Source: a virus
Length of the DNA stretch: 64,000 nt
IMG/VR virus record: IMGVR_UViG_3300045988_144682
Strand: one strand, 5' to 3'
The notes below the pieces were generated by a model. It was not told where the DNA came from. It did no database searches and was given only the letters and a program-made list of their open reading frames with translations. A program made the position numbers and the translations under genes. Below, piece by piece: positions 1 to 56,045 of the stretch (within the stretch, counting starts at the first letter, position 1; every line of letters starts with the position of its first letter).

Positions 1-15
1 AAATTAGAATTTTAT
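1..15. repeat. Left arm (window-truncated) of inverted repeat flanking the radical SAM 5' segment
   Basis: AAATTAGAATTTTAT is the exact reverse complement of 190-204. True length unknown because the window starts here. Confidence 0.6.
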
Positions 16-163
16 CATAATTGTGCAAATTGTTGTAATTTTGTTCAAGAACAACGTCATTTCCTAACATTTTGTGGTATGAAGATAGCTTCATACATGC
101 TAAGTTGGGGAATCTATGGTTCTTTCGCCCTATTAAATCGGCATCAACTATCGCAATTTTCAT
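1..163 (-). CDS. Detached, inverted 5' fragment of the radical SAM gene (start + first 54 codons; runs off window edge)
   Basis: ATG at 163 (GGAGG at 180-184 rc, long 16-nt spacing). Translates MKIAIVDADLIGRKNHRFPNLACMKLSSYHKMLGNDVVLEQNYNNLHNYDKILI. The last codons (DKILI) lie in the repeat whose partner is 190-204. Confidence 0.6.
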   Translation of the reverse strand, partial: MKIAIVDADLIGRKNHRFPNLACMKLSSYHKMLGNDVVLEQNYNNLHNYDKILI

Positions 164-189
164 TGTTTTTAGGTAAAATCCTCCACTTC

Positions 190-204
190 ATAAAATTCTA
201 ATTT
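190..204. repeat. Right arm of inverted repeat flanking the radical SAM 5' segment
   Basis: ATAAAATTCTAATTT; encodes (H)KILI in the frame of the downstream ORF. Confidence 0.6.
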
Positions 205-227
205 CTAAGGTTTTTACTGATACAGTA

Positions 228-1142
228 GTGCCAGAAGAAGTTTTGAATATGAAAAATGTGGAATACGGTGGAACAGGATTCTATTATGATAAAGCTCCAA
301 AGCTGCCTGATGACATTGAGCATATTTTCCCTGATTATCATTTATATGATGATTTTGTGAAAGAGCAGATTAAGAAAGGTGTAAAGCCGAAGGATTTAAA
401 GGAATACACCGATGTAAGCGTAGGTTTTACTACAAGAGGTTGTATACGACAATGTAAGTTTTGTGTGAATCAGAATTATAAGAAAGCAAGTGTTCATAGC
501 AGGATTGAAGAATTTTATGATCCGACACGAAAGTATATTTGTTTGCTTGATGACAATATATTCGCTTGCAAAGACTGGAAGCAAGTATTTGATGAACTGA
601 TTGCTACAGGTCACAAATTTTATTTCAAGCAAGGTATGGACGAAAGACTGTTGACAGATGAGAAGTGTGAGTATCTTTTCAATAAGGCAAATTGGTATGG
701 AGATTACACATTCGCATTTGACAATATTAAGGATAGAGAAATCATAGAAAAGAAACTGCAAATGATAAGGGAGCATACGGATAAGCAGTGTAGGTTTTAT
801 GTATTTTGTGGATTTAATCATAATGATCCAGGTATTTATTCAGATGAATTTTGGAAAAATGATATTGCAGATTTGTTTGAGAGAATAAGCATTTTGATGA
901 AATATAAGTGTTTACCATATATTATGCGATACATGGATTACGAGAAATCACCATTCAGAGGAATGTACATAGACATAGCCAGATGGTGTAATCAACCAAG
1001 TTTCTTTAAAAAGAAGACATTCAGAGAATTTTGCATAACGAATGGTAAAGAGTCATCATGTATGAAATACGCAAAATATTTTGAACAGCAATGCCCCGAT
1101 ATTGCAGAGAAATATTATGATTTAAGGTTTACAAATAAATGA
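228..1142 (+). CDS. Radical SAM domain protein, 3' body (no convincing own start; frame open from 177)
   Basis: CX3CX2C cluster motif in GFTTRGCIRQCKFCV. The in-frame upstream stretch KILISKVFTDTVVPEE has no ATG or RBS. The ORF-track start at 228 is GTG. Confidence 0.8.
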   Translation: MPEEVLNMKNVEYGGTGFYYDKAPKLPDDIEHIFPDYHLYDDFVKEQIKKGVKPKDLKEYTDVSVGFTTRGCIRQCKFCVNQNYKKASVHSRIEEFYDPTRKYICLLDDNIFACKDWKQVFDELIATGHKFYFKQGMDERLLTDEKCEYLFNKANWYGDYTFAFDNIKDREIIEKKLQMIREHTDKQCRFYVFCGFNHNDPGIYSDEFWKNDIADLFERISILMKYKCLPYIMRYMDYEKSPFRGMYIDIARWCNQPSFFKKKTFREFCITNGKESSCMKYAKYFEQQCPDIAEKYYDLRFTNK

Positions 1143-2764: not shown

Positions 2765-2920
2765 ATGTGGGATTTTGAAAAAGATTCAGACAAAACATGT
2801 TTCGACCATCTGGGTGATTATATCCCAGAAAGTATTGCAAACGAAGCGAAAAGAGAACTCAGAAGACGAGGATATTCTGAAGAGAAAATCCGTGAAGAAG
2901 AGTGGAAACGGACAAAATAA
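2765..2920 (+). CDS. Hypothetical 51-aa protein
   Basis: ATG overlaps the upstream stop (TAATATG); open for 51 codons, followed by a small hairpin at 2921-2938. Confidence 0.4.
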   Translation: MWDFEKDSDKTCFDHLGDYIPESIANEAKRELRRRGYSEEKIREEEWKRTK

Positions 2921-3053
2921 CTATTTTATTTGAAATAGCTTATTTAGCCGTTTTCAGACAAAATTATGAGTAAATAATAGAAGTCTTAGTTTCTGGAATT
3001 ACCTATATTACGGTGTTCCAGTATCATAGATAAAATAGTTATTAGGAGTAGTA

Positions 3054-3806
3054 ATGGAAGTCAACGAAATATATAAAGGTGACTGCCTGGAATTGATGAA
3101 AGATATTCCAACGAATAGTGTTGATATGATTTTATGTGATCTTCCGTTTGGGCAGACTGCCCGGAATAAATGGGATTCTGTTATACCGTTTGAACCATTA
3201 TGGCAGCAGTATAACAGAATTATTAAAGATAACGGTGCAATCGTACTATTCGCAAACGGAATGTTCACGGCTGACTTAATGCAAAGTAATAGAAAAATGT
3301 GGCGGTACAATCTTGTGTGGGAGAAAACACAACCGACAGGATTTTTGAATGCTAAGAAAATGCCACTTAGGGCGCATGAGGATATTTGCGTATTTTATAA
3401 GAAATTACCTACATACAATCCTCAGAAAACGACTGGACATATAAGAAAAGTAAGCAAAGCGGAACATAAGCAGAATTGTAAAGAGACTACGGATTATGAG
3501 AAATATGGACTGACTACATATGACAGTACAGAAAGATATCCTAGATCCGTGATTAAGTTCTCAAAAGACATTCAGAAATCAGCCATTCATCCGACACAAA
3601 AACCCGTTGGATTATTGGAGTATCTTATCAAGACTTATACAAATGAAGGTGAACTGGTACTTGATAATTGTGTTGGAAGTGGTAGTACATGTGTAGCTGC
3701 ACTTAATACAAACAGGCAGTATATTGGAATTGAAATGGACGATAAATATTTTGACATTGCTCAGAATAGGATTCGTGATTTCAAAGAATGCTTAAAACAA
3801 GCATAA
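3054..3806 (+). CDS. DNA N4/N6 methyltransferase (beta-class order)
   Basis: Catalytic DLPFG (DPPY-like) lies N-terminal to HPTQKP and the SAM motif DNCVGSGST. RBS AGGAG upstream. Confidence 0.85.
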   Translation: MEVNEIYKGDCLELMKDIPTNSVDMILCDLPFGQTARNKWDSVIPFEPLWQQYNRIIKDNGAIVLFANGMFTADLMQSNRKMWRYNLVWEKTQPTGFLNAKKMPLRAHEDICVFYKKLPTYNPQKTTGHIRKVSKAEHKQNCKETTDYEKYGLTTYDSTERYPRSVIKFSKDIQKSAIHPTQKPVGLLEYLIKTYTNEGELVLDNCVGSGSTCVAALNTNRQYIGIEMDDKYFDIAQNRIRDFKECLKQA

Positions 3807-4378: not shown

Positions 4379-4898
4379 TATGCAGGAGGACTTTGTGCGT
4401 GGTTCTCTGGGATCAAAAGATGCAGAAGCCATTGTAAGTAAAGTTAAAGCTAAAATTACCGAATACATGGAGCGTGGCGATAAGATCATCTTCACTAGAG
4501 ATACACACAGAGAAAATTATTTGGAAACACTGGAAGGTAAGAATCTGCCAGTTGAACATTGTATCTATGGCACAGAGGGATGGCGAATTATTCCAGAGCT
4601 AGTTGATGACTGCAAAGAATATCCAGACTGCTCATTTATTGACAAAGTAACATTTGGGTATGAGAACTGGAAAGATATTTTCGGCACTGTAGATGAATAC
4701 GGTATTGAGTTGGTGGGACTTTGCACTGATATTTGTGTAGTGTCAAATGCACTTGCATTACGAATGTTCTACCCGTCCTGGAACATTTCAGTTGATGAAA
4801 GTTGTTGTGCTGGTGTAACTACTAAGAAGCATAAAGCAGCACTTGAAGTCATGAAATCATGCCAGATTGAGGTTACAAACAGCCAGAAAACTAAATAA
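4353..4898 (+). CDS. pncA: Isochorismatase-family hydrolase, nicotinamidase-like
   Basis: VLIVIDMQEDF (Asp), TRDTHRENY (metal D/H), IDKVTF (Lys) and GLCTDICV (Cys) match the PncA-type triad and metal site. Confidence 0.7.
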   Translation: MKRVLIVIDMQEDFVRGSLGSKDAEAIVSKVKAKITEYMERGDKIIFTRDTHRENYLETLEGKNLPVEHCIYGTEGWRIIPELVDDCKEYPDCSFIDKVTFGYENWKDIFGTVDEYGIELVGLCTDICVVSNALALRMFYPSWNISVDESCCAGVTTKKHKAALEVMKSCQIEVTNSQKTK

Positions 4899-4900
4899 AA

Positions 4901-4909
4901 CTATGTTTT
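4901..4909. repeat. Left arm of short inverted repeat (C5-MTase switch)
   Basis: CTATGTTTT is the reverse complement of AAAACATAG at 5068-5076. Confidence 0.5.
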
Positions 4910-5009
4910 TATGTTGTCGGTCAAGTTCTATCGTGAAAGTCTCAAAACCCTTGATTTCAAAGGCTTTTGCGATACTACGTGTACCGCTAAATAAATCTAA
5001 ACACTTCAT
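4902..5009 (-). CDS. Detached, inverted 5' fragment of the C5 cytosine methyltransferase gene (RBS + first 36 codons)
   Basis: GAAAGGAAG RBS about 10 nt before ATG 5009. Encodes MKCLDLFSGTRSIAKAFEIKGFETFTIELDRQHKNI, i.e. SAM-binding motif I (FxGxG-like LFSGTRS). Confidence 0.7.
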
Positions 5010-5033
5010 TATAGTTTTACTTCCTTTCTCAAA

Positions 5034-5603
5034 TTGCGTATATTACGTGATTACAAACGACCAAATCAAAACATAGATTGGTATGCAGATATCATGGAAG
5101 TAACGGCAAAAGACATTATTGAGAGATTCGGTAGACCGGATGTAATCTGGGCAAGTCCACCATGTACAAGTTATTCTATCGCTGCAATATCACATCACAG
5201 AAAGAAGAATGTTGAAACCGGCAGTCTTGATCCTGTAAGTGATTTTGCAAAGCTATCTGATGAGCTTGTAAAACATACATTAGAGCTTATCAAAGAATTA
5301 AAGCCTAAGTATTGGTTCATCGAAAATCCTAGAGGTGGCATGAGAAAAATGGATTTCATGCAAGGATTGCCACGATACACAGTTACATACTGCCAGTATG
5401 GTGATACACGAATGAAACCTACGGACATATGGACTAACCACCCGAATCCTCAATTTAAGCCAATGTGCCATAATGGTGATCCATGTCATGAGAAAGCACC
5501 TAGAGGGAGTAAAACAGGCACACAAGGTTTAAAGGGTGCTGTACAGAGAAGTGTTATACCAGAGGAATTATGCTTGCATATTGCAGATATATGTAGACTG
5601 TAG
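5034..5603 (+). CDS. C5 cytosine DNA methyltransferase, 3' body lacking motif I
   Basis: WASPPCTSYS (motif IV PC), IENPRGG (motif VI ENV-like), YCQYGDTRMKPT. No FxGxG motif and no RBS; the ORF-track start is TTG. Confidence 0.75.
   Translation: MRILRDYKRPNQNIDWYADIMEVTAKDIIERFGRPDVIWASPPCTSYSIAAISHHRKKNVETGSLDPVSDFAKLSDELVKHTLELIKELKPKYWFIENPRGGMRKMDFMQGLPRYTVTYCQYGDTRMKPTDIWTNHPNPQFKPMCHNGDPCHEKAPRGSKTGTQGLKGAVQRSVIPEELCLHIADICRL
5068..5076. repeat. Right arm of short inverted repeat (C5-MTase switch)
   Basis: AAAACATAG; codons N-I-D of the plus-strand ORF. Confidence 0.5.
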
Positions 5604-22601: not shown

Positions 22602-22806
22602 AATCTAAATCATGAGCCTCTTTAATCGAGGAATTCAACGATTTATGATAGCAACAACAAGTTCCAAACTAAATAAAATTCTGATTTTATTTAGACTACT
22701 AATCGTCTGAAGCAAGCAAATATTGCTTAAAACAGAGGATAACGATTTTTACGAAAAACAGAAAAATCATGTTTGCGAAAGGATATATAGTATTTTTGTT
22801 TTACGT

Positions 22807-22937
22807 TTCTGGGAATATATCTTTTTGGGGAAAATGGCTTAAATCTCACATAATCGGCACTTTCGCCCCAATTTTCCCAAAAACAAAACACGTTTTTGGC
22901 AATTACTTCTGATTTTGGGAAATATTTTTGGGAAGGA
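22807..22937. repeat. Cluster of five TTTTGGGAA(A/T)AT-like motifs (4 direct, 1 inverted) upstream of tnsA-like gene
   Basis: Copies at 22807-22818, 22822-22835, 22871-22883 (inverted), 22911-22925 and 22925-22936. Confidence 0.6.
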
Positions 22938-22944
22938 GATTCAT

Positions 22945-23283
22945 ATGCGAAAAAAGAATTTCAAAGGGCGATGTGAAAAAATCACAGTCACAAAATCAAA
23001 ATCAATCTGTAAAACCTACGATGATCTACAAAGAAGCTATCTCGAAAAATTAGAAGCAAATTCCGACATTCAAGAAATCCGTATGAATATCGTTTTAGAC
23101 AGCTTGCCAGATTATATGTCAGACTTTGTTTGTGTTAAGAATGATGGTGGTTTAATGGTGCGAGAATGCGTATATCGGAAATTTCTCACTAAACCAATGA
23201 CAGTAAAGTTATTGGACGATTCAAGGAACTATTGGCGAAATCATGGTGTAGAAGATTGGGGGTTAGTTATAGATGCAGAATAA
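22945..23283 (+). CDS. TnsA-endonuclease-like small protein
   Basis: GGAAGGAG RBS. YMSDFVCV...VRECVYRK...SRNYWRNHGVEDWGLVIDAE resembles the TnsA N-terminal restriction-like fold. Catalytic Lys position unclear. Confidence 0.5.
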   Translation: MRKKNFKGRCEKITVTKSKSICKTYDDLQRSYLEKLEANSDIQEIRMNIVLDSLPDYMSDFVCVKNDGGLMVRECVYRKFLTKPMTVKLLDDSRNYWRNHGVEDWGLVIDAE

Positions 23284-25099
23284 TCTTATCAAAATTCAAG
23301 ATGGCACGATTTACCGTATATTACAAGAACGTGACTCAGAATGGCTTGTAATTGATTGTATTAAGCGTACTATGCCGAAATGGATAGAAAGTTTGGCTGA
23401 ATTTGAAAGCGTGCCTGAAAGCGTTTTATGGGTGACTACTGGCATTTATCCGACTGACACAAACACTTTATCAACCAAAGAGAAGAAGTATATGAATGAG
23501 CATTACAGCTTGTTTGCTAGTGTTCTGGGCGTTATTGATGATGAGAAAACGAGAAGCTATATTATCCGTGAGATTGCTGAATTATATAAAGTTACTAAGC
23601 AGACAATACGCAACAATTTATGTTTATATTTAGTTTATCAAGATATTACAGTCCTGCTGCCACACAAAAAAGAAAAACGAAACTTGACCAATGATGAAAA
23701 AAATATGAGGTGGGCATTAAACAAATATTACTACACCACAAAGAAACACAGTATTTCCGATGTTTATACAATGATGCTGAAAGAGAAATACTGTGATGAA
23801 ACTGGTCATCTCAAAGAAGATCATCCTTCTATTCATCAATTCCGCTATTACTTTCAGAAGACCAAGAAGCTGCAAAATTTATATATCAGTCGTGGCGGTT
23901 TAAAGGATTATCAGAAAAATCATAGACCGTTGCTTGGTGATGGTGTACAGGAATTTGCCCCAAATGTAGGTTTTGGCATGTTGGATTCTACAATTTGCGA
24001 TATCTACCTTGTGAATGATGCAAGGGAAGTTGTAGGAAGACCGATATTGACGGCTTGTGTAGATGGGTATAGTGGTATGTGTTTAGGTTATTCGCTTGGT
24101 TGGAAAGGTGGAATATATAGTGTTAAGGGACTAATGCTTAATATCGTTGCAGATAAAAAGGAACACTGTAAAAAATTTGGTATTGATATTGCTGATAATG
24201 TGTGGGATTGCCACCAAATGCCAGGGGTAATGATAACAGATAAAGGATCAGAATATATATCTGAAAACTTTGAACAAATCACAGAACTGGGAATAAGGTT
24301 GATTGATTTACCATCGTACCGACCAGAACTAAAAGGATCAGTCGAAAAATTCTTTGACCTTATACAGAATTCTTTCAAAACCGTGTTAAAAGGAAAAGGT
24401 GTAATAGAGCCGGATTTTCAAGAAAGGGGCGCACACGACTATCGAAAAGATGCTTGTATCACATTGGAAATATTCGAAAAAGTCTTGTTACATTGCATCA
24501 TTTATTATAATAGTGGACGCATACTGGAAAATTACCCATTCACTGAAGAGATGCTTTCCGCTAACATAAAACCATTTGCTTGTGAAGTTTGGAATTATGG
24601 CAGAAACCGTAATAATGCAAACTTGATAGATGTATCTGCAGAGCAAGTTATTATGACACTGCTGCCTAGATGCATCGGCAAATTTGCCCGAAACGGCTTA
24701 AAGGTGAACGGATTACGATATAAGCACCCTAACTATACAGAAATGTATCTGAAAGGTGGGGAGGTTACTGTTGCTTATAATCCGGATTCTGTTTCTGATG
24801 TTTGGCTTATTGATAATGGTGAATATGTAAAATTTGAACTGATTGAAAGTCGATATGAACACATGAATGTGGCGAATGTTGCCTCAATAAACGATGTGAA
24901 AAAAGAAGTTATCAAACAAGCGGAAAATGAAAACAAGCAAGCAAAAATAAATTTGCTAAAAACGATTGAAGTCATAACGGCTGGATCAGTGCCAAAATCT
25001 GTCCCTATAAAGAAAATACGTGAAAACCGTACAAAGGAAGAAACTCGTACACATATTGATTTTACGAAGGGAGTAAAGAAATATGCTACAAGAAAATAA
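23273..25099 (+). CDS. tnsB: DDE transposase, TnsB/MuA family
   Basis: rve-like core with MLDSTICDIYL (D), MITDKGSEY (D), RPELKGSVEKFF (E); long C-terminal domain. Confidence 0.8.
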   Translation: MQNNLIKIQDGTIYRILQERDSEWLVIDCIKRTMPKWIESLAEFESVPESVLWVTTGIYPTDTNTLSTKEKKYMNEHYSLFASVLGVIDDEKTRSYIIREIAELYKVTKQTIRNNLCLYLVYQDITVLLPHKKEKRNLTNDEKNMRWALNKYYYTTKKHSISDVYTMMLKEKYCDETGHLKEDHPSIHQFRYYFQKTKKLQNLYISRGGLKDYQKNHRPLLGDGVQEFAPNVGFGMLDSTICDIYLVNDAREVVGRPILTACVDGYSGMCLGYSLGWKGGIYSVKGLMLNIVADKKEHCKKFGIDIADNVWDCHQMPGVMITDKGSEYISENFEQITELGIRLIDLPSYRPELKGSVEKFFDLIQNSFKTVLKGKGVIEPDFQERGAHDYRKDACITLEIFEKVLLHCIIYYNSGRILENYPFTEEMLSANIKPFACEVWNYGRNRNNANLIDVSAEQVIMTLLPRCIGKFARNGLKVNGLRYKHPNYTEMYLKGGEVTVAYNPDSVSDVWLIDNGEYVKFELIESRYEHMNVANVASINDVKKEVIKQAENENKQAKINLLKTIEVITAGSVPKSVPIKKIRENRTKEETRTHIDFTKGVKKYATRK

Positions 25100-26333
25100 G
25101 ATTATCGAATTATTACCACAAGTGTTATCGGGAGATCGTTTAATTGAAGAACTTGGGTATCTTCCAGCGTATAATGAAACAATAATAGAACAAAGTCAGG
25201 CAAGCAGATTACTGGCATTGTCGGATATATATAGGGTGTATGTGCCATCTGAAATGAGTATTGAAATATATAATAAATTATATTTGGCACTATTACTATC
25301 TATAAAAAAGAAATTCACGGCAGCAGCAGTAAAACAAAGATATGAGAATGCAAAAATGATAAAACGAATGGATTCTGTGGGAATAATCGGTGGTTCGGAT
25401 TCATTCACTATTATTGGTTCATCTGGTATTGGAAAGAGTAGTGCTATAGAAAAATCCATTGGACTCTTAACGGAAAACGCCATTATACAGGATGATGAAC
25501 TGATAGGGAATGTTATTCCTTGCCTGGTTGTACAGTGTCCTTTTGACAGCTCAGTAAAAAGTTTGCTTCTGGAAATTCTCAGAAAAACAGATGAGGTGCT
25601 TGAAACGAATTATTATGAGTCAGCTAAAAAATCAAGATATACGACAACAGATGTTTTAATTGGTTCGGTCAGTACGATTGCATTAAATCACATAGGACTT
25701 TTGATCGTGGACGAAATACAAAATGTGGTTAATTCTAAGAATGGGAAAAGCCTCATTGGATCACTAACACAGTTAATCAATAATAGCGGTATATCTATCT
25801 GCATGGTGGGAACACCAGAAAGTGTGCCATTCTTTGAACAGGCTATGCAGTTGGCACGTAGAAGTGTAGGGTTAAGATATGAAGCAATGGAATATGGCGA
25901 TTACTTCAAATTTTTATGTCAAGTATTATGGCAGTATCAATATGTAAAAGAGTGCGTAGAACTTACAGAAGAAGTCACGTACTGGCTGTATGAGCATTGT
26001 GGGGGTGTTGTTTCTATTCTTATAACATTGCTGCATGATAGTCAGGAAATGGCAATTATGAGTGGCTATGACACCTTAGATTTGACGATATTGGAAGAAA
26101 CATATAAAAGCCGGTTATCTATGTTACACGGATATATTAAGCCAAATATGGGAGCAAAAGCCAGCCAGAAAAGAAAGAAAAGGATGCCAGAAATCAGCAG
26201 TGAAATTCTTTGCATCGAAAACGAGTCCCTAATTTCAGACCTAAGTACAATCGTAAAACAGGGGGCAATGGATATTGATGAAATGATAAATAGAATGAAT
26301 GTGGCATTTATGGTAGAGGTGATTGCATGTTAG
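25083..26333 (+). CDS. tnsC: AAA+ ATPase, TnsC/TniB family
   Basis: Walker A GSSGIGKSS and Walker B LLIVDEIQN; positioned between transposase and TniQ. Confidence 0.8.
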   Translation: MLQENKIIELLPQVLSGDRLIEELGYLPAYNETIIEQSQASRLLALSDIYRVYVPSEMSIEIYNKLYLALLLSIKKKFTAAAVKQRYENAKMIKRMDSVGIIGGSDSFTIIGSSGIGKSSAIEKSIGLLTENAIIQDDELIGNVIPCLVVQCPFDSSVKSLLLEILRKTDEVLETNYYESAKKSRYTTTDVLIGSVSTIALNHIGLLIVDEIQNVVNSKNGKSLIGSLTQLINNSGISICMVGTPESVPFFEQAMQLARRSVGLRYEAMEYGDYFKFLCQVLWQYQYVKECVELTEEVTYWLYEHCGGVVSILITLLHDSQEMAIMSGYDTLDLTILEETYKSRLSMLHGYIKPNMGAKASQKRKKRMPEISSEILCIENESLISDLSTIVKQGAMDIDEMINRMNVAFMVEVIAC

Positions 26334-27700
26334 GGATTGTACCAAAGTTATACGAAGATGAGCTTTTTTATTCATGGCTGTGCCGGTATTATGTGGCAAA
26401 AGGTTTTACGTCCAATTCTCATTTTATAGAGGAAGTAACCGGGAACAACAGATTGTATTTGAATAAAGAGTTTGTGCCACCATTCAAAGCAGAGTTTCGC
26501 CATGACATTGAAAAAATATTTGGTTTTGAGAATGTTATAAGAAATCATACTCTATACGGACAAGAAGCACGTTTCTATACTGAGGAAGAAATAAATAATG
26601 TGTGGGAGCTTTTTCAGACAGATTCCTTTGATATTAGAACATTATTTAGAATGCAGAAATCAAAAGAGGGGCATTCTCTTAGTTATTGCCCTTTGTGTGT
26701 TAAAGAAGAACGGGAATCTATCGGTGAATGCTACTGGCATAAATCCCACCAAATACAAGGTATAGATATCTGTTTGAAACACAGGTGTAAGCTAAAAGAA
26801 TCCGAAATAAGAGTTGGTTCAAAACATAATGATATGATATCTCCGGCAGAATGGTGGTGTAATGATTCGGAAATAGAAATGGTAGAAAACACGCATTGCT
26901 TGAAATATTATAATTATGTGTGGGAAATTGCCAATGCCCCTTGTAACGGGATGGATGCAAAAAAGATTATAGCTCTGTTATACAAGAAGCTGAAAGAAAA
27001 AGGCTACCGGACACTAGGACAACGGCTTTTAGGGATTATGTCAGAAGATATGGAGCAGTATTATGAGGAAATGGGCGTATCTTATGAAATGTGTTATTCA
27101 ACATTACAGACAATATTTGCAAAGTATAATTATCCGTTTATTGCCATTATCCAAACAGCGTACTTTTTAGGTGTGACAGCAGAAGAGTTACTGAATCCAG
27201 TTGTTAGTGATTTTGATATTGCAGATGAGGAATGTAGCCACTATGTCAGTGACCGTAATAATACAAATATCAATCGTGATCTGATGGATCGAAATTATCT
27301 GAAATCTGTTAAAAGAGAATGTGAGTTGATATATAGTGGTCATTATCATGCAAAAGGAAGACCGATGAAAGTGTCTGCACTTAAAGTATGCAAGAGAGTT
27401 GGAATTACACATACTTTGATTAAGTTTATGCCACTTTGCAAGGCTTGTATTGATGAATATGCAGAAACGGATGACGAATATCATGCGAGGATTATTGTGT
27501 GGGCTTATAGAAAATTGAAAGCGGAAAAAACGGACGGTGAAATAATTCGTGTGTCAGAAATTCATAAACTTACAAGTGAATGGAAGGAAAATATCATAAG
27601 AGCATTGCCATATATGGCGAAATTTGCGGATCAAGAAATGATAAATGAGATAGATGCATTAGCGAGAGAGAAGCATTGGCATAGAAATTTAGTGGACTAA
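26327..27700 (+). CDS. tniQ: TniQ/TnsD-family target selector
   Basis: N-terminal LYEDELFYSWLCRY; zinc module CPLC...HKSH...CLKHRC. Confidence 0.75.
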   Translation: MLGIVPKLYEDELFYSWLCRYYVAKGFTSNSHFIEEVTGNNRLYLNKEFVPPFKAEFRHDIEKIFGFENVIRNHTLYGQEARFYTEEEINNVWELFQTDSFDIRTLFRMQKSKEGHSLSYCPLCVKEERESIGECYWHKSHQIQGIDICLKHRCKLKESEIRVGSKHNDMISPAEWWCNDSEIEMVENTHCLKYYNYVWEIANAPCNGMDAKKIIALLYKKLKEKGYRTLGQRLLGIMSEDMEQYYEEMGVSYEMCYSTLQTIFAKYNYPFIAIIQTAYFLGVTAEELLNPVVSDFDIADEECSHYVSDRNNTNINRDLMDRNYLKSVKRECELIYSGHYHAKGRPMKVSALKVCKRVGITHTLIKFMPLCKACIDEYAETDDEYHARIIVWAYRKLKAEKTDGEIIRVSEIHKLTSEWKENIIRALPYMAKFADQEMINEIDALAREKHWHRNLVD

Positions 27701-27868: not shown

Positions 27869-28324
27869 CTACTTTTCTTTGAATTGTATGATTGTACGTC
27901 CGAACAGTTTATAGTATGGTGCTGGTTCTTCATCAAAGACATAGTAGTTTATTGAATCAGCAACGATTATTGCCAAAAAAGAAAGAACTATCCATAGCAG
28001 CATAAACGGCACACAGATAATTCCTTTATAATTGAGTGGCAAATTTGAATAGTCCCACATTACAGGCAACAAATCAGTATTCAAGAAAATGTTCCCTATA
28101 ATCAATTCAAGTGCCGTAATCATTGACATGCCTATCATGCACTGTAATAGAATATCAATATCCCATGATATATGATCGTTGATTTTATCCAACACAACAA
28201 CTACTAAACCGGCACAAACACCCATGAGAGGATATGAATATCCTCTAAACAATACTTCTATAGTGATATACAGGCAGAAGCCAACAATAAATAAAATTAC
28301 ATTTTTATATACTTTTTTACTCAT
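27869..28324 (-). CDS. Multi-pass membrane protein (lysis-cassette associated)
   Basis: About 4 predicted hydrophobic helices; AAGGAG RBS. Confidence 0.65.
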   Translation of the reverse strand: MSKKVYKNVILFIVGFCLYITIEVLFRGYSYPLMGVCAGLVVVVLDKINDHISWDIDILLQCMIGMSMITALELIIGNIFLNTDLLPVMWDYSNLPLNYKGIICVPFMLLWIVLSFLAIIVADSINYYVFDEEPAPYYKLFGRTIIQFKEK

Positions 28325-32155: not shown

Positions 32156-32428
32156 CTATAATAAAGAACTCATTTCGATAATGCAGCGTTTCATTTTTTC
32201 CATTTCTGTCATTTCCCGAATGATAAATCTTGTATGACCGTCTTCTTGCCAAATATTTGTACATATCATATCGGCATAGTCAACGCCACCTATATTAACT
32301 GTTGTTAAATTGTTATCAGACAAAAGTTCCATATTAACCACATCGTCTGTTATATAATTGTTTCCATTCATTGTGGCGTGAATCTCTGTTTTGTCTGCGA
32401 GGATAATATTGTAAATAGTATTTTCCAT
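32156..32428 (-). CDS. Hypothetical protein
   Basis: GGAGG RBS; the start lies inside the last 95 nt of the RT ORF. Confidence 0.5.
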   Translation of the reverse strand: MENTIYNIILADKTEIHATMNGNNYITDDVVNMELLSDNNLTTVNIGGVDYADMICTNIWQEDGHTRFIIREMTEMEKMKRCIIEMSSLL

Positions 32429-33602
32429 CTATAAAACCTCCAAATAAATCAAAATAAAGAAGATTCAAATTATCTCGTTGTATTTTACTCATTAAATGAG
32501 CATGACCGCCCATCCATGCACGAAACATATTCTCAACTTCTTCTTGTGTACGTTCTCCACGTATAACTTTTAGACTAAGTTTCTTTAATTTTCGCCTCAT
32601 ATCAACAATTCTTCTTGGATTTATTTTTCTAATAACCCTACCAGTATCGGTAAGAGAATAGGTGATTTGCAGAAATTTATAGTAATCTGATAATTTTACG
32701 ATTCTTGTCTTTTTGCGATTGAGAGTCATACCTAATTCTTTTGCTTTTTCTGCAATTTCTATTTCAAGCTGTACTAAAAATTCTCTGTCACGGTGGATAA
32801 CATAACTGTCATCCATATACCTTCCATAAAATTTCTGACTTTTTACAATTTTTACAAAATTATCTACAGGTGTTGGATAAAAGATACCTATAATTTGAGA
32901 ACATTGATCCCCAATATTTACAGATTTGCGCATATACTTTTCGCCAGTATGAGCAGATTTAGGAATTTTCAATCTATATTCAGTTGAATTAAATGGAACA
33001 TTCATACAATTTGAAAATTCTTCATCATTCATATACGAAACATCAATTTTAAAATTATCAAAAATCTGTTGTAACAACCAAAGAGAAAATTCATCATTCA
33101 CATGCTTGGCAATTTCTCGATAAGCTATATCATGTGGAATATTATCGTAAAACTTACTATAATCCATCAATAAAATATATCCGTCATTACCATACATTCG
33201 ATAATATTTATGTAAATGTTCTTCAAAGCGTTTTCGACTAAAATCAATGCCTTTGCCCTTAAGAGAAGCACCATTATCATAGATAAGATAATCTATGAGA
33301 GATGGAGATAAAACGTTATCACAAAGAGAATGACGAATTACTCTGTCAGACATTTGTAGTCCTGTAATTGGTCGAACTTTACCACGTTCATTGATAATAA
33401 ATTCAGAAGATGGTTTTGAATGATATTCTCTATTCTTTAACAAATCCTTGGTTGATACAATATTAGGCAAAAAGTCAATTCCATACTTTTGTACTTGTGG
33501 TTTCCAATCAGAATCTTTCTTGGCTGCGAGAAATGCAGAATATAATGAGTTCAAATCATATACAATATTATCTACATTGTCTTGAGCATTTTCTTTATTC
33601 AT
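32334..33602 (-). CDS. DGR reverse transcriptase
   Basis: LLMDYSKFYDNI, DGR-type IGDQCSQ motif and catalytic YMDD; lies immediately 3' of the template repeat. Confidence 0.9.
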   Translation of the reverse strand: MNKENAQDNVDNIVYDLNSLYSAFLAAKKDSDWKPQVQKYGIDFLPNIVSTKDLLKNREYHSKPSSEFIINERGKVRPITGLQMSDRVIRHSLCDNVLSPSLIDYLIYDNGASLKGKGIDFSRKRFEEHLHKYYRMYGNDGYILLMDYSKFYDNIPHDIAYREIAKHVNDEFSLWLLQQIFDNFKIDVSYMNDEEFSNCMNVPFNSTEYRLKIPKSAHTGEKYMRKSVNIGDQCSQIIGIFYPTPVDNFVKIVKSQKFYGRYMDDSYVIHRDREFLVQLEIEIAEKAKELGMTLNRKKTRIVKLSDYYKFLQITYSLTDTGRVIRKINPRRIVDMRRKLKKLSLKVIRGERTQEEVENMFRAWMGGHAHLMSKIQRDNLNLLYFDLFGGFIDGKYYLQYYPRRQNRDSRHNEWKQLYNRRCG

Positions 33603-33778
33603 TTCATAATCTTTTCTTTCATAATCATATTTATTTATATTTGACGTATATAGCAATCAGTCGTAACGAATTGCATCGTCTTTATCTTTTTGCGTATTAT
33701 ATAACACACGCAAGGACAACTTCTCCTTTCTTCGTTTCCTGTATCTGCATATAGCATAGTTAAACAGGCAGAAGAAAT

Positions 33779-51347: not shown

Positions 51348-51375
51348 TAATCTTGCAAATAATAATAGTAATAAA
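51348..51375. repeat. 28-bp inverted repeat, left arm
   Basis: TAATCTTGCAAATAATAATAGTAATAAA; 26/28 complementary to 51961-51988. Confidence 0.85.
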
Positions 51376-51426: not shown

Positions 51427-51960
51427 ATGGCACTTATTAAATGTCCTGAGTGCGGAAAAGAAATTTCCGACAAATCAAAACATTGCATTCATTGTGGATA
51501 TCCACTTGATGAATTAAAAATAAATAATACCAACCAACTCTACAAAATTGTATTAACAGATCATGGCAAAAACAAAGTTCAAACAATTGCCAAAATCCGT
51601 GAATTTACCGGCATGGGATTAGCCGAAGCAAAGAAATTTTCTGAATCTTTACCACAAGTAATTCAATCTGGTATCAACATGGATGAATGTAATTTGATAC
51701 AGTCACACTTTTTATCAGTCGGTGCAACCGTAGAAATTCAGCCAGATAATGAATCTGTTTCAAAAAACACAGTTTTAGAGAATAAACCAATAGCAAAAGC
51801 TATAGTTAAAGACAAAAATGTAATTACTTGTCCGAAATGTGGATCTACTGCTATCGTAACCACAAATAGAGGATTCTCTATAATGACTGGATTTATTGGC
51901 TCTGGCAGTCCACGTAATGTATGTCAAAATTGTGGATTCAAATGGAAACCAAGAGCATAA
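51427..51960 (+). CDS. Zinc-ribbon / ribosomal L7/L12 C-terminal-domain-like / zinc-ribbon protein
   Basis: CPECG...CIHCG; AKIREFTGMGLAEAKKFSESLP resembles the L7/L12 CTD; CPKCG...CQNCG. It is the only convincing plus-strand gene in the late arm. Confidence 0.75.
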   Translation: MALIKCPECGKEISDKSKHCIHCGYPLDELKINNTNQLYKIVLTDHGKNKVQTIAKIREFTGMGLAEAKKFSESLPQVIQSGINMDECNLIQSHFLSVGATVEIQPDNESVSKNTVLENKPIAKAIVKDKNVITCPKCGSTAIVTTNRGFSIMTGFIGSGSPRNVCQNCGFKWKPRA

Positions 51961-51988
51961 ATTATTACCATTATTATTTGCAAGATTA
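51961..51988. repeat. 28-bp inverted repeat, right arm
   Basis: ATTATTACCATTATTATTTGCAAGATTA, starting right after the stop of the 51427 ORF. Confidence 0.85.
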
Positions 51989-55010: not shown

Positions 55011-56045
55011 TTATAGATCACTTAAAGACGAACTCTTACCTTCCACAATTCCATCTTTTGTGAAATACTTACTGAATTCTTCGGAAACCTCACTATCGTT
55101 GTAGAGATTAACCATGTCCGAACTACTCCATCCGAAAAATTCCTGAACAACATTTGCCGGGATATTCAGCTTCAATAATTTTGTGTTGAGATAATGTCTC
55201 ATGCAGTGCCAGTAAAAATCCACACCTAATTCATTTGAGAAGATGTTCGCCCAACTATCAAGAGTACTGACTTTCATTTGTGCATAAGAACCATCACCAC
55301 ATCTATGTACAAAAAGCCATTCGCTCTCAATGCCTTGTTTCTTACGTTGTTCCATCCATAAATCAAGGTATTTCTTAAACTCATAAAGCACATATTTATT
55401 GAGCTGTTTACCTGTTTTACCAGCTCCCTTAGTTTTGATCTTAGGAGTCTTATATAAACCACCATAAACAATATTGTTCTCATCGAAGTATTCAACTTTG
55501 AATCTCAACAATTCTGATTTTCTAGCACCACTCATTGCAGCCAAAGCAAAAGCACATGCCTGTTGGTATCGTTCTTCACTAACCAATTTATCTAAGAATT
55601 TATCTACGTCATCATCTGGGATAATGGTTTTCTCACGAACAGCTTCGTTCTTCGGGGATTCAATCTTTCCAATAATGGATCGGAAATTCTCAAAATCTTC
55701 GTCTTCGTCCTGTAAAATATTTTCAATATAATTTGACATGCTACTGATAGCAGATTTTACCCTACGAATTCTTTTCGGACTCCAACCCCATTCATTGATT
55801 GCATATCCCTGGAATCGTGCAAGCTCACGTTTCTTGATATCAACAAAAAATTTATTGTTGTTGTACTCTAAGTTCCAGCAGAAGAAAATTTCTAGGTCGT
55901 TTCTGTACCCGTTAATTGTAGAAGGGGCACGATCAATAGACGCAAGATATTCAAGAAAATCTTCACAAAGTTGTTTATTGTTTGGATTGATTTTCTTGAT
56001 AGATTCTTCGTTTGTAATTTTGTTATAAATTGTTGTTCTACCCAT
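55011..56045 (-). CDS. Tyrosine recombinase (phage integrase family)
   Basis: N-terminal SAM-like core-binding domain; SGARKSEL (Arg), HCMRHY (HxxR), NLYND (Tyr). Confidence 0.85.
   Translation of the reverse strand: MGRTTIYNKITNEESIKKINPNNKQLCEDFLEYLASIDRAPSTINGYRNDLEIFFCWNLEYNNNKFFVDIKKRELARFQGYAINEWGWSPKRIRRVKSAISSMSNYIENILQDEDEDFENFRSIIGKIESPKNEAVREKTIIPDDDVDKFLDKLVSEERYQQACAFALAAMSGARKSELLRFKVEYFDENNIVYGGLYKTPKIKTKGAGKTGKQLNKYVLYEFKKYLDLWMEQRKKQGIESEWLFVHRCGDGSYAQMKVSTLDSWANIFSNELGVDFYWHCMRHYLNTKLLKLNIPANVVQEFFGWSSSDMVNLYNDSEVSEEFSKYFTKDGIVEGKSSSLSDL

Follow-up and report, generated by a model that had tools for sequence, protein, structure and literature searches.

At positions 4901 to 5076 of a 64,000 nt stretch of phage DNA (IMG/VR record IMGVR_UViG_3300045988_144682; the whole stretch is called the window hereafter), the beginning of a predicted C5 cytosine methyltransferase (C5 methylase) gene lies on the minus strand and the body of the gene lies on the plus strand, with the displaced portion bounded by a short inverted repeat (Table 1). 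We refer to this element as switch 1. The plus-strand open reading frame (ORF) has a TTG start, lacks a purine-rich ribosome-binding site, and contains the sequences ASPPCTSYS and ENPRGG. The minus-strand ORF opens with MKCLDLFSGTRS, and the sequence GAAAGGAAG precedes its ATG at 5009. The 9 nt repeat CTATGTTTT and its reverse complement AAAACATAG are each found in one copy in the window, and inversion in silico of the segment between them yields a stop-free ORF encoding 211 amino acids. An initial annotation of this DNA had described the same arrangement, and each of its elements was recovered in our analysis.

In the orientation present in the window, which we term OFF, the ATG at 5009 opens MKCLDLFSGTRSIAKAFEIKGFETFTIELDRQHKNI and is then followed by 14 further codons antisense to the upstream gene, and the methylase body reads MRILRDYKRPNQ- out of non-coding-like sequence. 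Along with motifs IV (PPC) and VI (ENP), the body carries a motif VIII-like QYGDTR and a motif X-like RSVIPEEL. A second (alternative) N-terminal cassette is not present at switch 1, and there is no simple-sequence repeat tract in 4850-5603. The opposite orientation, in which the gene is intact, is termed ON.

The initial annotation proposed that the reconstructed protein would align without interruption to C5 methylases across the junction that the inversion creates. This proved to be the case for the Pfam profile PF00145, for the family phrog_757 and for homologues of 210-212 amino acids. Against PF00145 (gathering cut-off 22 bits), residues 1-123 of the reconstructed protein match profile positions 1-113 with a score of 39.6 bits, and the OFF ORF of 189 amino acids scores 27.5 bits with a match that starts at profile position 48. 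The match to phrog_757, which is annotated 'DNA methyltransferase', extends over residues 1-207 of the reconstructed protein. A large protein collection holds thousands of matches of 210-212 amino acids, with 99-100% coverage and 73-90% identity. The junction is gap-free in an alignment of 22 homologues, in which I36, D41, I42, P64, C66 and E119-N120-P121 are invariant. Motif I, located on the inverted fragment, reads LDLFSGTRS, and its residues L6, F7 and G9 are likewise invariant among the 22 homologues; this departs from the usual form in having G-T-R where G-x-G-G would be expected. The invariant P64 and C66 are the catalytic residues of motif IV (SPPCTSYS), and motif VI reads ENP rather than ENV in this alignment.

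Structure prediction gave a similar picture. An AlphaFold model of the reconstructed protein has a predicted local distance difference test score (pLDDT) of 85 and a predicted template modelling score of 0.85. Residues 1-28 form the first strand-helix-strand of the Rossmann fold in this model, and the mean pLDDT is 93-96 for each ten-residue block of residues 1-40. The top Foldseek matches in the PDB are M.HaeIII (3ubt, E 3.6e-9), the catalytic domains of DNMT3A and DNMT3B, and M.HhaI, with TM-scores relative to the query of 0.5-0.59 over 178-197 columns. As modelled, the fold and the catalytic motifs are those of a C5 methylase, and methyl-transfer activity would be predicted for the 211-residue protein.

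Both orientations of switch 1 occur in nature. The exact ON protein of 211 amino acids is present in the collection (P0121), on at least 12 contigs that derive from independent samples and share the same gene neighbourhood. In each of loci L011-L017, the 250-bp sequence spanning the switch is identical to the predicted inversion at every base, and loci L021 and L061 are also in the flipped state. The OFF ORF of the window is recorded in 190 collection blocks that come from different assemblers and studies, the minus-strand OFF product of 50 amino acids (P0135) is seen on 243 contigs, and hundreds of contigs contain the OFF junctions; they stem from unrelated samples and cohorts and from MEGAHIT, SPAdes, Logan and IMG assemblies. 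Fixation in the present orientation, which the initial annotation had named as the sign of a dead pseudogene, is therefore not what is observed: the exact ON protein and the exact inverted DNA appear in independent assemblies, and each of the two states recurs on several backgrounds and in two lineages.

To relate the two states to their genomic backgrounds, we compared the haplotypes of the flanks, using 1.9 kb of upstream sequence and as much as 10 kb altogether. Across 10.5 kb, 11 mismatches separate the ON locus L011 from the OFF window, and alignment artefacts at the repeat arms account for about half of them. Other ON loci differ from the window by 1.4%, 2.2%, 5% and 6%, and they are interleaved with OFF loci that are equally diverged. 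The ON state is found on at least three flank haplotypes. Both states are found in lineage 1 (95-100% protein identity) and in lineage 2 (85-88%); a third lineage (L049, 88%) is seen in the ON state only. The protein sequence of the inverted N-terminal fragment is still 100% conserved even where an OFF locus has a gene body diverged to 96%. One contig (L141, ERZ925546) terminates exactly at the equivalent of 4909, the last base of the left repeat, which is the de Bruijn branch point expected if the reads hold both orientations. Contigs that start at right repeats would be expected to yield edge-truncated proteins, and exact look-ups found none of these.

The repeat arms vary in concert. Three repeat alleles are known (CTATGTTTT/AAAACATAG, CAATGTTTT/AAAACATTG and CAATATTTT/AAAATATTG), and the two arms match in all of about 70 loci, with no mismatched locus. 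Within the gene, the allele changes are synonymous (ATA to ATT, AAC to AAT). Either selection keeps the arms identical or recombination homogenizes them, and in both cases the repeat must be in active use. The repeat also extends inward imperfectly, with 16 of 19 positions matching between 4901-4919 and 5058-5076, and the outer flank ATAAAA of the left repeat is kept across six different upstream contexts. All loci of at least 86% identity carry the repeat and a segment of 157 or 158 bp, and all homologues below 80% are intact and lack such a repeat, which makes the switch a derived feature of one clade. The right-arm 9-mer is already coding (E-N-I-D) in non-switching homologues such as L044 and L051, which points to an origin of the switch through the gain of a left copy in the intergenic spacer. 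Two variant proteins were noted among the relatives. P0010, for which only the protein sequence is at hand, is OFF-oriented, and a deletion of about 26 nt appears to remove its right repeat, so that it may be locked OFF; P0018 is the product of a DUF5052 lipoprotein gene fused to the methylase body, on a 1.1 kb contig.

Inversion at this locus is recurrent, and we infer that it is reversible along a single line of descent. We interpret 4901-5076 as a programmed inversion switch in a large SPbeta-like phage of human-gut Firmicutes, that is, as a recurrently flipping inverton and not a dead pseudogene or an artefact, and we assign this interpretation a probability of roughly 0.8. In the mechanism that we propose, site-specific recombination between the 9-bp repeats would flip the 158-bp cassette. 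The genes from 1 to 22.6 kb are all on the plus strand and are separated by very short gaps; a read-through early-gene transcript would always cross the locus, and the flip would decide whether a complete translatable ORF exists. In the ON state the intact gene would be translated. The OFF transcript would contain a body without ribosome-binding site, start codon or S-adenosylmethionine (SAM)-binding motif I, and presumably no active enzyme would be made from it. Control would thus be exerted by decapitating the coding sequence and not by turning a promoter.

Several observations weigh against this interpretation. Perfect 9-bp inverted-repeat pairs spaced 50-300 bp apart number 113 in the window and 137 +/- 13 in dinucleotide-preserving shuffles, so the 9-bp repeat by itself is not above chance in this AT-rich DNA, as the initial annotation had rightly cautioned. 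The case rests on the in-frame reconstruction, the full-length homologues and the natural contigs of opposite orientation. Scans for promoters and terminators in both orientations of switch 1 gave nothing above shuffled controls. A canonical target-recognition domain (motifs VIII-IX) was not found in the reconstructed protein; about 40 residues occupy this region, with a Cys/His-rich loop and low pLDDT at 182-187. With the Dcm-type profile TIGR00675, the score is 31.6 bits (cut-off 100.65) and the alignment is confined to profile positions 2-111. Judged by these comparisons, the protein appears to be a short-form relative (phrog_757) and not a canonical Dcm. In the unbiased locus sets, drawn from IMG/VR, JGI/ENA metagenomes and GTDB genomes, there are 7 ON loci versus 32-33 OFF, and the exact proteins are found in about 13 versus about 190 collection blocks; flipping may be rare, or the ON state may be counter-selected. 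Finally, what points to probable switching within a population at switch 1 is only where contigs end.

Switch 1 has two siblings, both of which lie upstream of it in the window. Switch 2 is bounded by a perfect 13-bp repeat whose left copy overlaps the upstream stop codon (2918-2920), and it ends 1 nt ahead of the ribosome-binding site (3044-3048) of a gene for an N6/N4 DNA methyltransferase (N6/N4 methylase). Its segment is exactly inverted in loci L008, L011, L015 and L021, and is flipped as judged by identity or probe match in L032, L107, L134, L136, L137 and L141. Three contigs have 3030 as their first position and one has 2929 as its last, making the contig-edge signature stronger at switch 2 than at switch 1. 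The lineage 2 counterpart, upstream of its own N6/N4 methylase gene, has a different repeat of 11 bp (AATGATAGTTT), and it too is seen in both orientations.

Switch 3 resembles switch 1 in that one of its repeats is placed near the beginning of a gene body, here that of a radical-SAM protein. The minus strand of its segment holds GGAGG (184-180), an ATG (163-161) and the first 49 codons of the radical-SAM gene, and a minus-strand ORF of 54 codons (163-2) continues through the left repeat. Inversion of 16-189 brings this N-terminus in frame with the ORF 228-1142 to give a radical-SAM protein of 366 amino acids that matches phrog_9298 over residues 1-335. This exact ON protein (P0154) is found in 32 collection blocks and the OFF form in 233, and the ON DNA of L132-L141 equals the predicted inversion. 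A scan of viral contigs with the radical-SAM protein gave three OFF loci and no new repeat alleles. We considered whether P0155, of 316 amino acids, is an edge-truncated fragment and rejected the idea, as its sequence represents a diverged ON form whose C-terminal part is frameshifted.

The window would be expected to hold 0.4 perfect 13-bp inverted repeats at such a spacing; those of switches 2 and 3 are the only ones there. An automated screen for repeat-bounded inversions that create an ATG-started ORF through the right repeat returned, on the coding strand, only switches 1 and 3. Among loci that span all three switches, seven of the eight combinations of states are seen, which indicates that the three flip independently; a weak excess of ON at switch 1 together with a flipped switch 2 (Fisher p about 0.04) comes from a sample that was partly ON-selected. 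There are at least three independently flipping switches within 5 kb, which adjoin genes for a radical-SAM protein, an N6/N4 methylase and the C5 methylase. An inverton was also sought at a 27-nt repeat (51348-51374 and 51962-51988, 96% complementary) and was unsupported, because, among contigs that encode the exact protein of the bracketed gene (23 contigs read), all 7 of 7 places were shown in the window orientation. This repeat brackets 51427-51960, the only plus-strand gene in the tail module, which encodes 177 amino acids with zinc ribbons and an L7/L12 C-terminal-like domain.

The sequences at the repeats suggest a common site plan. In our hypothesis, the outer arm of each site is A-rich, the inner arm reads TTTNAT, and a spacer of 6 bp separates the two (Table 1); the right-hand sites have the same spacer and inner arm, and their outer arms are degenerate. 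The 6-bp spacer is the same within a pair and differs between switches, and the substitutions that distinguish the lineages lie in the spacer. This behaviour fits the overlap region of a tyrosine recombinase, and it would stop the three switches from recombining with one another. The motif ATAAAA-N6-TTTNAT is of low specificity, since it also matches AT-rich palindromes at 22673-22690 and 28291-28308. A scan with a motif derived from switches 1 and 2 also returned 51474-51489 on the minus strand (CAATGTTTTGATTTGTCG), in the 177-residue gene mentioned above. It resembles the lineage 2 right site of switch 1, and it is probably a chance match because no inverted partner is nearby.

Which enzyme would act on these sites was approached with precomputed Pfam tables and our own scans; together they cover about 77 kb, beginning 10 kb before the window and reaching about 66.8 kb. 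A single site-specific recombinase gene, for an Xer-like tyrosine recombinase, is present in this region, and no serine recombinase (PF00239) was present among the called genes. Long IMG/VR contigs that carry switch 1 also carry the tyrosine recombinase (100% identical in lineage 1, 78% in lineage 2), and its exact protein occurs in 6420 collection blocks as opposed to 200-1100 for neighbouring phage proteins. We tentatively put this protein forward as the best candidate for the invertase, at somewhat less than even odds, its link to the switches being a presumed one. Two points are unfavourable to this assignment. The gene is 50 kb from the switches. In addition, homologues with 29% identity in Bacillus SPbeta-like phages are annotated XerC, and the protein may have another role, for example in resolving genome multimers. 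The fuller proposal that one phage tyrosine recombinase drives three orthogonal switches, giving up to eight modification states with spacers that work like heterospecific lox or FRT sites, is more doubtful still, although we consider it possible.

Alternatively, a genuine inverton might be flipped by another recombinase, either one encoded elsewhere in the phage genome or a host enzyme of RecV or Xer type. This would accommodate the conservation of the recombinase type of the window in SPbeta-like Bacillus phages and the position of its gene within a tail-gene module far from the switches. An estimated 50-90 kb of the phage, about half, extends beyond the survey, and in one scaffold a different gene of the integrase family adjoins the end of the phage. 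Set against these are the standing of the candidate as the sole gene of its kind in the surveyed DNA, its co-occurrence with the switch on long contigs of both lineages and its presence in far more blocks than its neighbours. We hold a different enzyme to be a credible possibility, about as doubtful as the single-enzyme, three-switch proposal.

Table 1. Features of the three switches, the candidate invertase and the hypothesized recombination sites (window coordinates).
Feature	Position	Strand	Sequence or remarks
Switch 1, left repeat	4901-4909	+	CTATGTTTT; starts 2 nt past the stop codon (4896-4898) of an isochorismatase-like gene
Switch 1, invertible segment	4910-5067		158 bp; OFF in window; 5' untranslated region, ribosome-binding site, ATG and methylase codons 1-34
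Switch 1, right repeat	5068-5076	+	AAAACATAG; within coding sequence, codons K34-N35-I36-D37
C5 methylase, codons 1-36	4902-5009	-	MKCLDLFSGTRS..., motif I; 50-amino-acid ORF to 4857 in OFF state
C5 methylase, ribosome-binding site	5020-5028	-	GAAAGGAAG; flips together with start codon; direct sequence reading
C5 methylase, body	5070-5603	+	Codons 35-211 and stop; listed as 189-amino-acid TTG ORF 5034-5603
Switch 2	2917-3042		Perfect 13-bp repeat, ATAACTATTTTAT (2917-2929) and ATAAAATAGTTAT (3030-3042); encloses 100-bp intergenic segment 2930-3029
N6/N4 DNA methyltransferase gene	3054-3806	+	PF01555; directly downstream of switch 2
Switch 3	1-204		Perfect 15-bp repeat, AAATTAGAATTTTAT (1-15) and ATAAAATTCTAATTT (190-204); encloses 174 bp (16-189); OFF in window
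Radical-SAM gene, body	192-1142	+	CIRQCKFC motif; OFF call is a 304-amino-acid GTG ORF, 228-1142
Xer-like tyrosine recombinase, candidate invertase	55011-56045	-	PF00589, 64 bits; mid tail-gene module
Putative site S1, lineage 1			ATAAAA-CTATGT-TTT(T/G)AT
Putative site S1, lineage 2			ATAAAA-CAATGT-TTTTAT
Putative site S1, lineage 2b			ATAAAA-CAATAT-TTTTAT
Putative site S2, lineage 1			ACAAAA-TAACTA-TTTTAT
Putative site S2, lineage 2			ATAAAA-TGATAG-TTTTAT
Putative site S3			ATTAAA-TTAGAA-TTTTAT

Recurrent inversion could also proceed with no dedicated recombinase, for example by template switching during replication or by recombination at the short homologies that the repeats provide. Such a process would suit repeats of only 9-15 bp that are 100-174 bp apart and switches with no recombinase gene beside them, and gene conversion in the course of it could likewise keep the arms identical. 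It would not readily explain why, with about 113 equally good 9-bp pairs in the window, only three loci have been seen inverted, a count that comes from related contigs with uneven coverage of the window. Moreover, the arm sequences beyond the identical core are conserved across lineages and switches (ATAAAA outside, TTTNAT inside), and the junctions are precise in every locus. We regard this explanation as improbable.

Somewhat less probable again is the view that one historical inversion killed the gene and that old ON and OFF alleles have since been reshuffled by homologous recombination, with no ongoing switching. These phages are mosaic, the OFF state strongly predominates, and P0010 has apparently lost its right repeat, as judged from its protein sequence. 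Nevertheless, one ON/OFF pair is separated by few single-nucleotide differences in 10 kb, and both states recur over backgrounds that are up to 6% diverged. Both states are also found in a lineage whose protein is 13% diverged and whose repeat has changed in both arms together. The full conservation of the N-terminal fragment in OFF loci is unexpected for a decaying pseudogene, a contig breaks at the repeat edge, and the two neighbouring loci behave alike. An assembly artefact, namely a mis-join at a short inverted repeat of the kind that can confuse assemblers, is ruled out by the recurrence of the same OFF junctions in hundreds of contigs from independent assemblies of unrelated samples and of ON junctions in at least 12 others.

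The programmed inversion switch that we favour shares features with several known systems. Like the fimS element of E. coli, which is inverted by FimB and FimE, it would rely on binary inversion of a short segment between 9-bp inverted repeats and would have a bet-hedging role at the population level. The fimS segment (314 bp) carries a promoter and the recombinase genes adjoin it, whereas the segment described here is in a phage, carries a ribosome-binding site, a start codon and 34 codons, has no above-chance promoter, and is 50 kb away from the nearest recombinase gene. The RecV switches of Clostridioides difficile (flgB, 154 bp; cwpV, 195 bp; cmrRST) are likewise similar: they also occur in Firmicutes, involve segments of about 150-200 bp with short imperfect repeats, and depend on one distant tyrosine recombinase that serves several unlinked switches, as is proposed here. 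Those switches, however, use promoters or terminators in chromosomal 5' untranslated regions, and here it is a phage coding sequence that is split.

The position of one repeat inside the gene and the other outside it places switch 1 with the partial intergenic (gene-altering) invertons and shufflons (Milman et al. 2023, PMC9881135; Chanin et al., PMC10028968). Gene-altering invertons favour restriction-modification and methylase genes (PMC9881135, PMC10028968). The cases in these two reports mostly involve alternative homologous cassettes that change specificity, unlike the present alternation between an intact and a decapitated gene without any alternative cassette, and no orphan C5 methylase of a phage is described in the text of either report, which was examined for terms on phages and methylases. 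Stochastic variation of methylation in a clonal population is a property also of phasevarions and of the inverting Type I hsdS 'epigenetic invertons' (PMC7672463). Phasevarions depend on simple-sequence repeats, and the bacterial hsdS systems shuffle specificity domains; here, in contrast, a solitary phage C5 methylase would be turned ON and OFF by inversion.

Programmed inversion encoded by phages, with mixed progeny, is represented by Gin of Mu and Cin of P1 and their G and C segments. Gin and Cin are serine invertases that act on kilobase segments to exchange tail-fibre genes and thereby alter the host range. The segments here are 100-174 bp and are associated with DNA-modification genes, and the surveyed region has no called serine recombinase. 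The full-text literature that was searched does not describe any inverton that gates a phage C5 methylase. Set beside fimS, the RecV switches and the partial intergenic invertons, switch 1 stands apart in being promoterless and cassette-free, in residing in a phage, and in that it would gate an orphan C5 methylase beside two siblings that would gate other genes.

The window belongs to a phage with an approximate length of 130-170 kb. SPbeta-like structural genes are present (YonB, YonD, YomU, YomW and YomX), NCBI names one member protein as coming from Ruminococcus sp. AM18-44, and the phage is present in human gut metagenomes of many cohorts. Among GenBank phages there is no DNA relative, and the recombinase has only distant protein relatives there. 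The switches are within a block of genes for DNA modification and nucleotide metabolism, with further C5 methylase genes and a PAPS-reductase-like gene upstream of them and with genes for thymidylate synthase, DHFR, NrdD/NrdG and dUTPase downstream. Locus L107 (1-1134), which corresponds to a place about 9-10 kb before the window begins, has another C5 methylase gene with frame breaks at G6-G7 tracts. Such tracts are unusual at a GC content of 35%, and the breaks could reflect slipped-strand phase variation or homopolymer sequencing error. In L016 (3397-4466), a Y1 transposase (PF01797) gene replaces the window sequence from about 6154 onward.

Further to the right, a 557-kb scaffold (locus L018, 14690-22355) is identical to the window up to about 22785 and continues with bacterial-looking genes. 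All three copies of TTTNGGGAA in the window (22824-22934) are to the right of this breakpoint, and next to them, at 23273-27700, are genes for a Mu/TnsB-like DDE transposase (608 amino acids), TniB (416 amino acids) and TniQ (457 amino acids). The region 22785-27700 may be a Tn7-like end or a phage integration module. The palindrome at 22673-22690 was considered as a phage attachment core and was rejected, given that the scaffold leaves the window sequence at about 22785. A reverse transcriptase gene (RVT_1) is located at 32334-33656 on the minus strand beside tail-fibre genes, and this placement makes a diversity-generating retroelement likely.

Phase-variable methylation is an established bacterial strategy, and phage invertons are known mainly for tail-fibre (host-range) switching. 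The phage described here appears to phase-vary its own DNA-modification genes by removing the start of a coding sequence and not by promoter flipping. The likely benefit, to judge from established restriction biology, is bet-hedging, in which mixed progeny would be prepared both for hosts whose restriction targets unmethylated DNA and for those whose restriction targets methylated DNA; a further possible benefit is that lysogens would avoid the costs of the methylase. Hundreds of public contigs call the methylase gene as a fragment of 168-189 amino acids, and the mechanism, if confirmed, would explain such 'silent' or truncated-looking methylase genes on mobile elements. The switches also make up a compact natural set of apparently orthogonal recombination sites. 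Confirmation would add a layer of epigenetic bet-hedging in phage to the arms race with host restriction. If the three-switch interpretation is true, each burst would mix methylation and modification patterns against both restriction-modification and methylation-dependent restriction.

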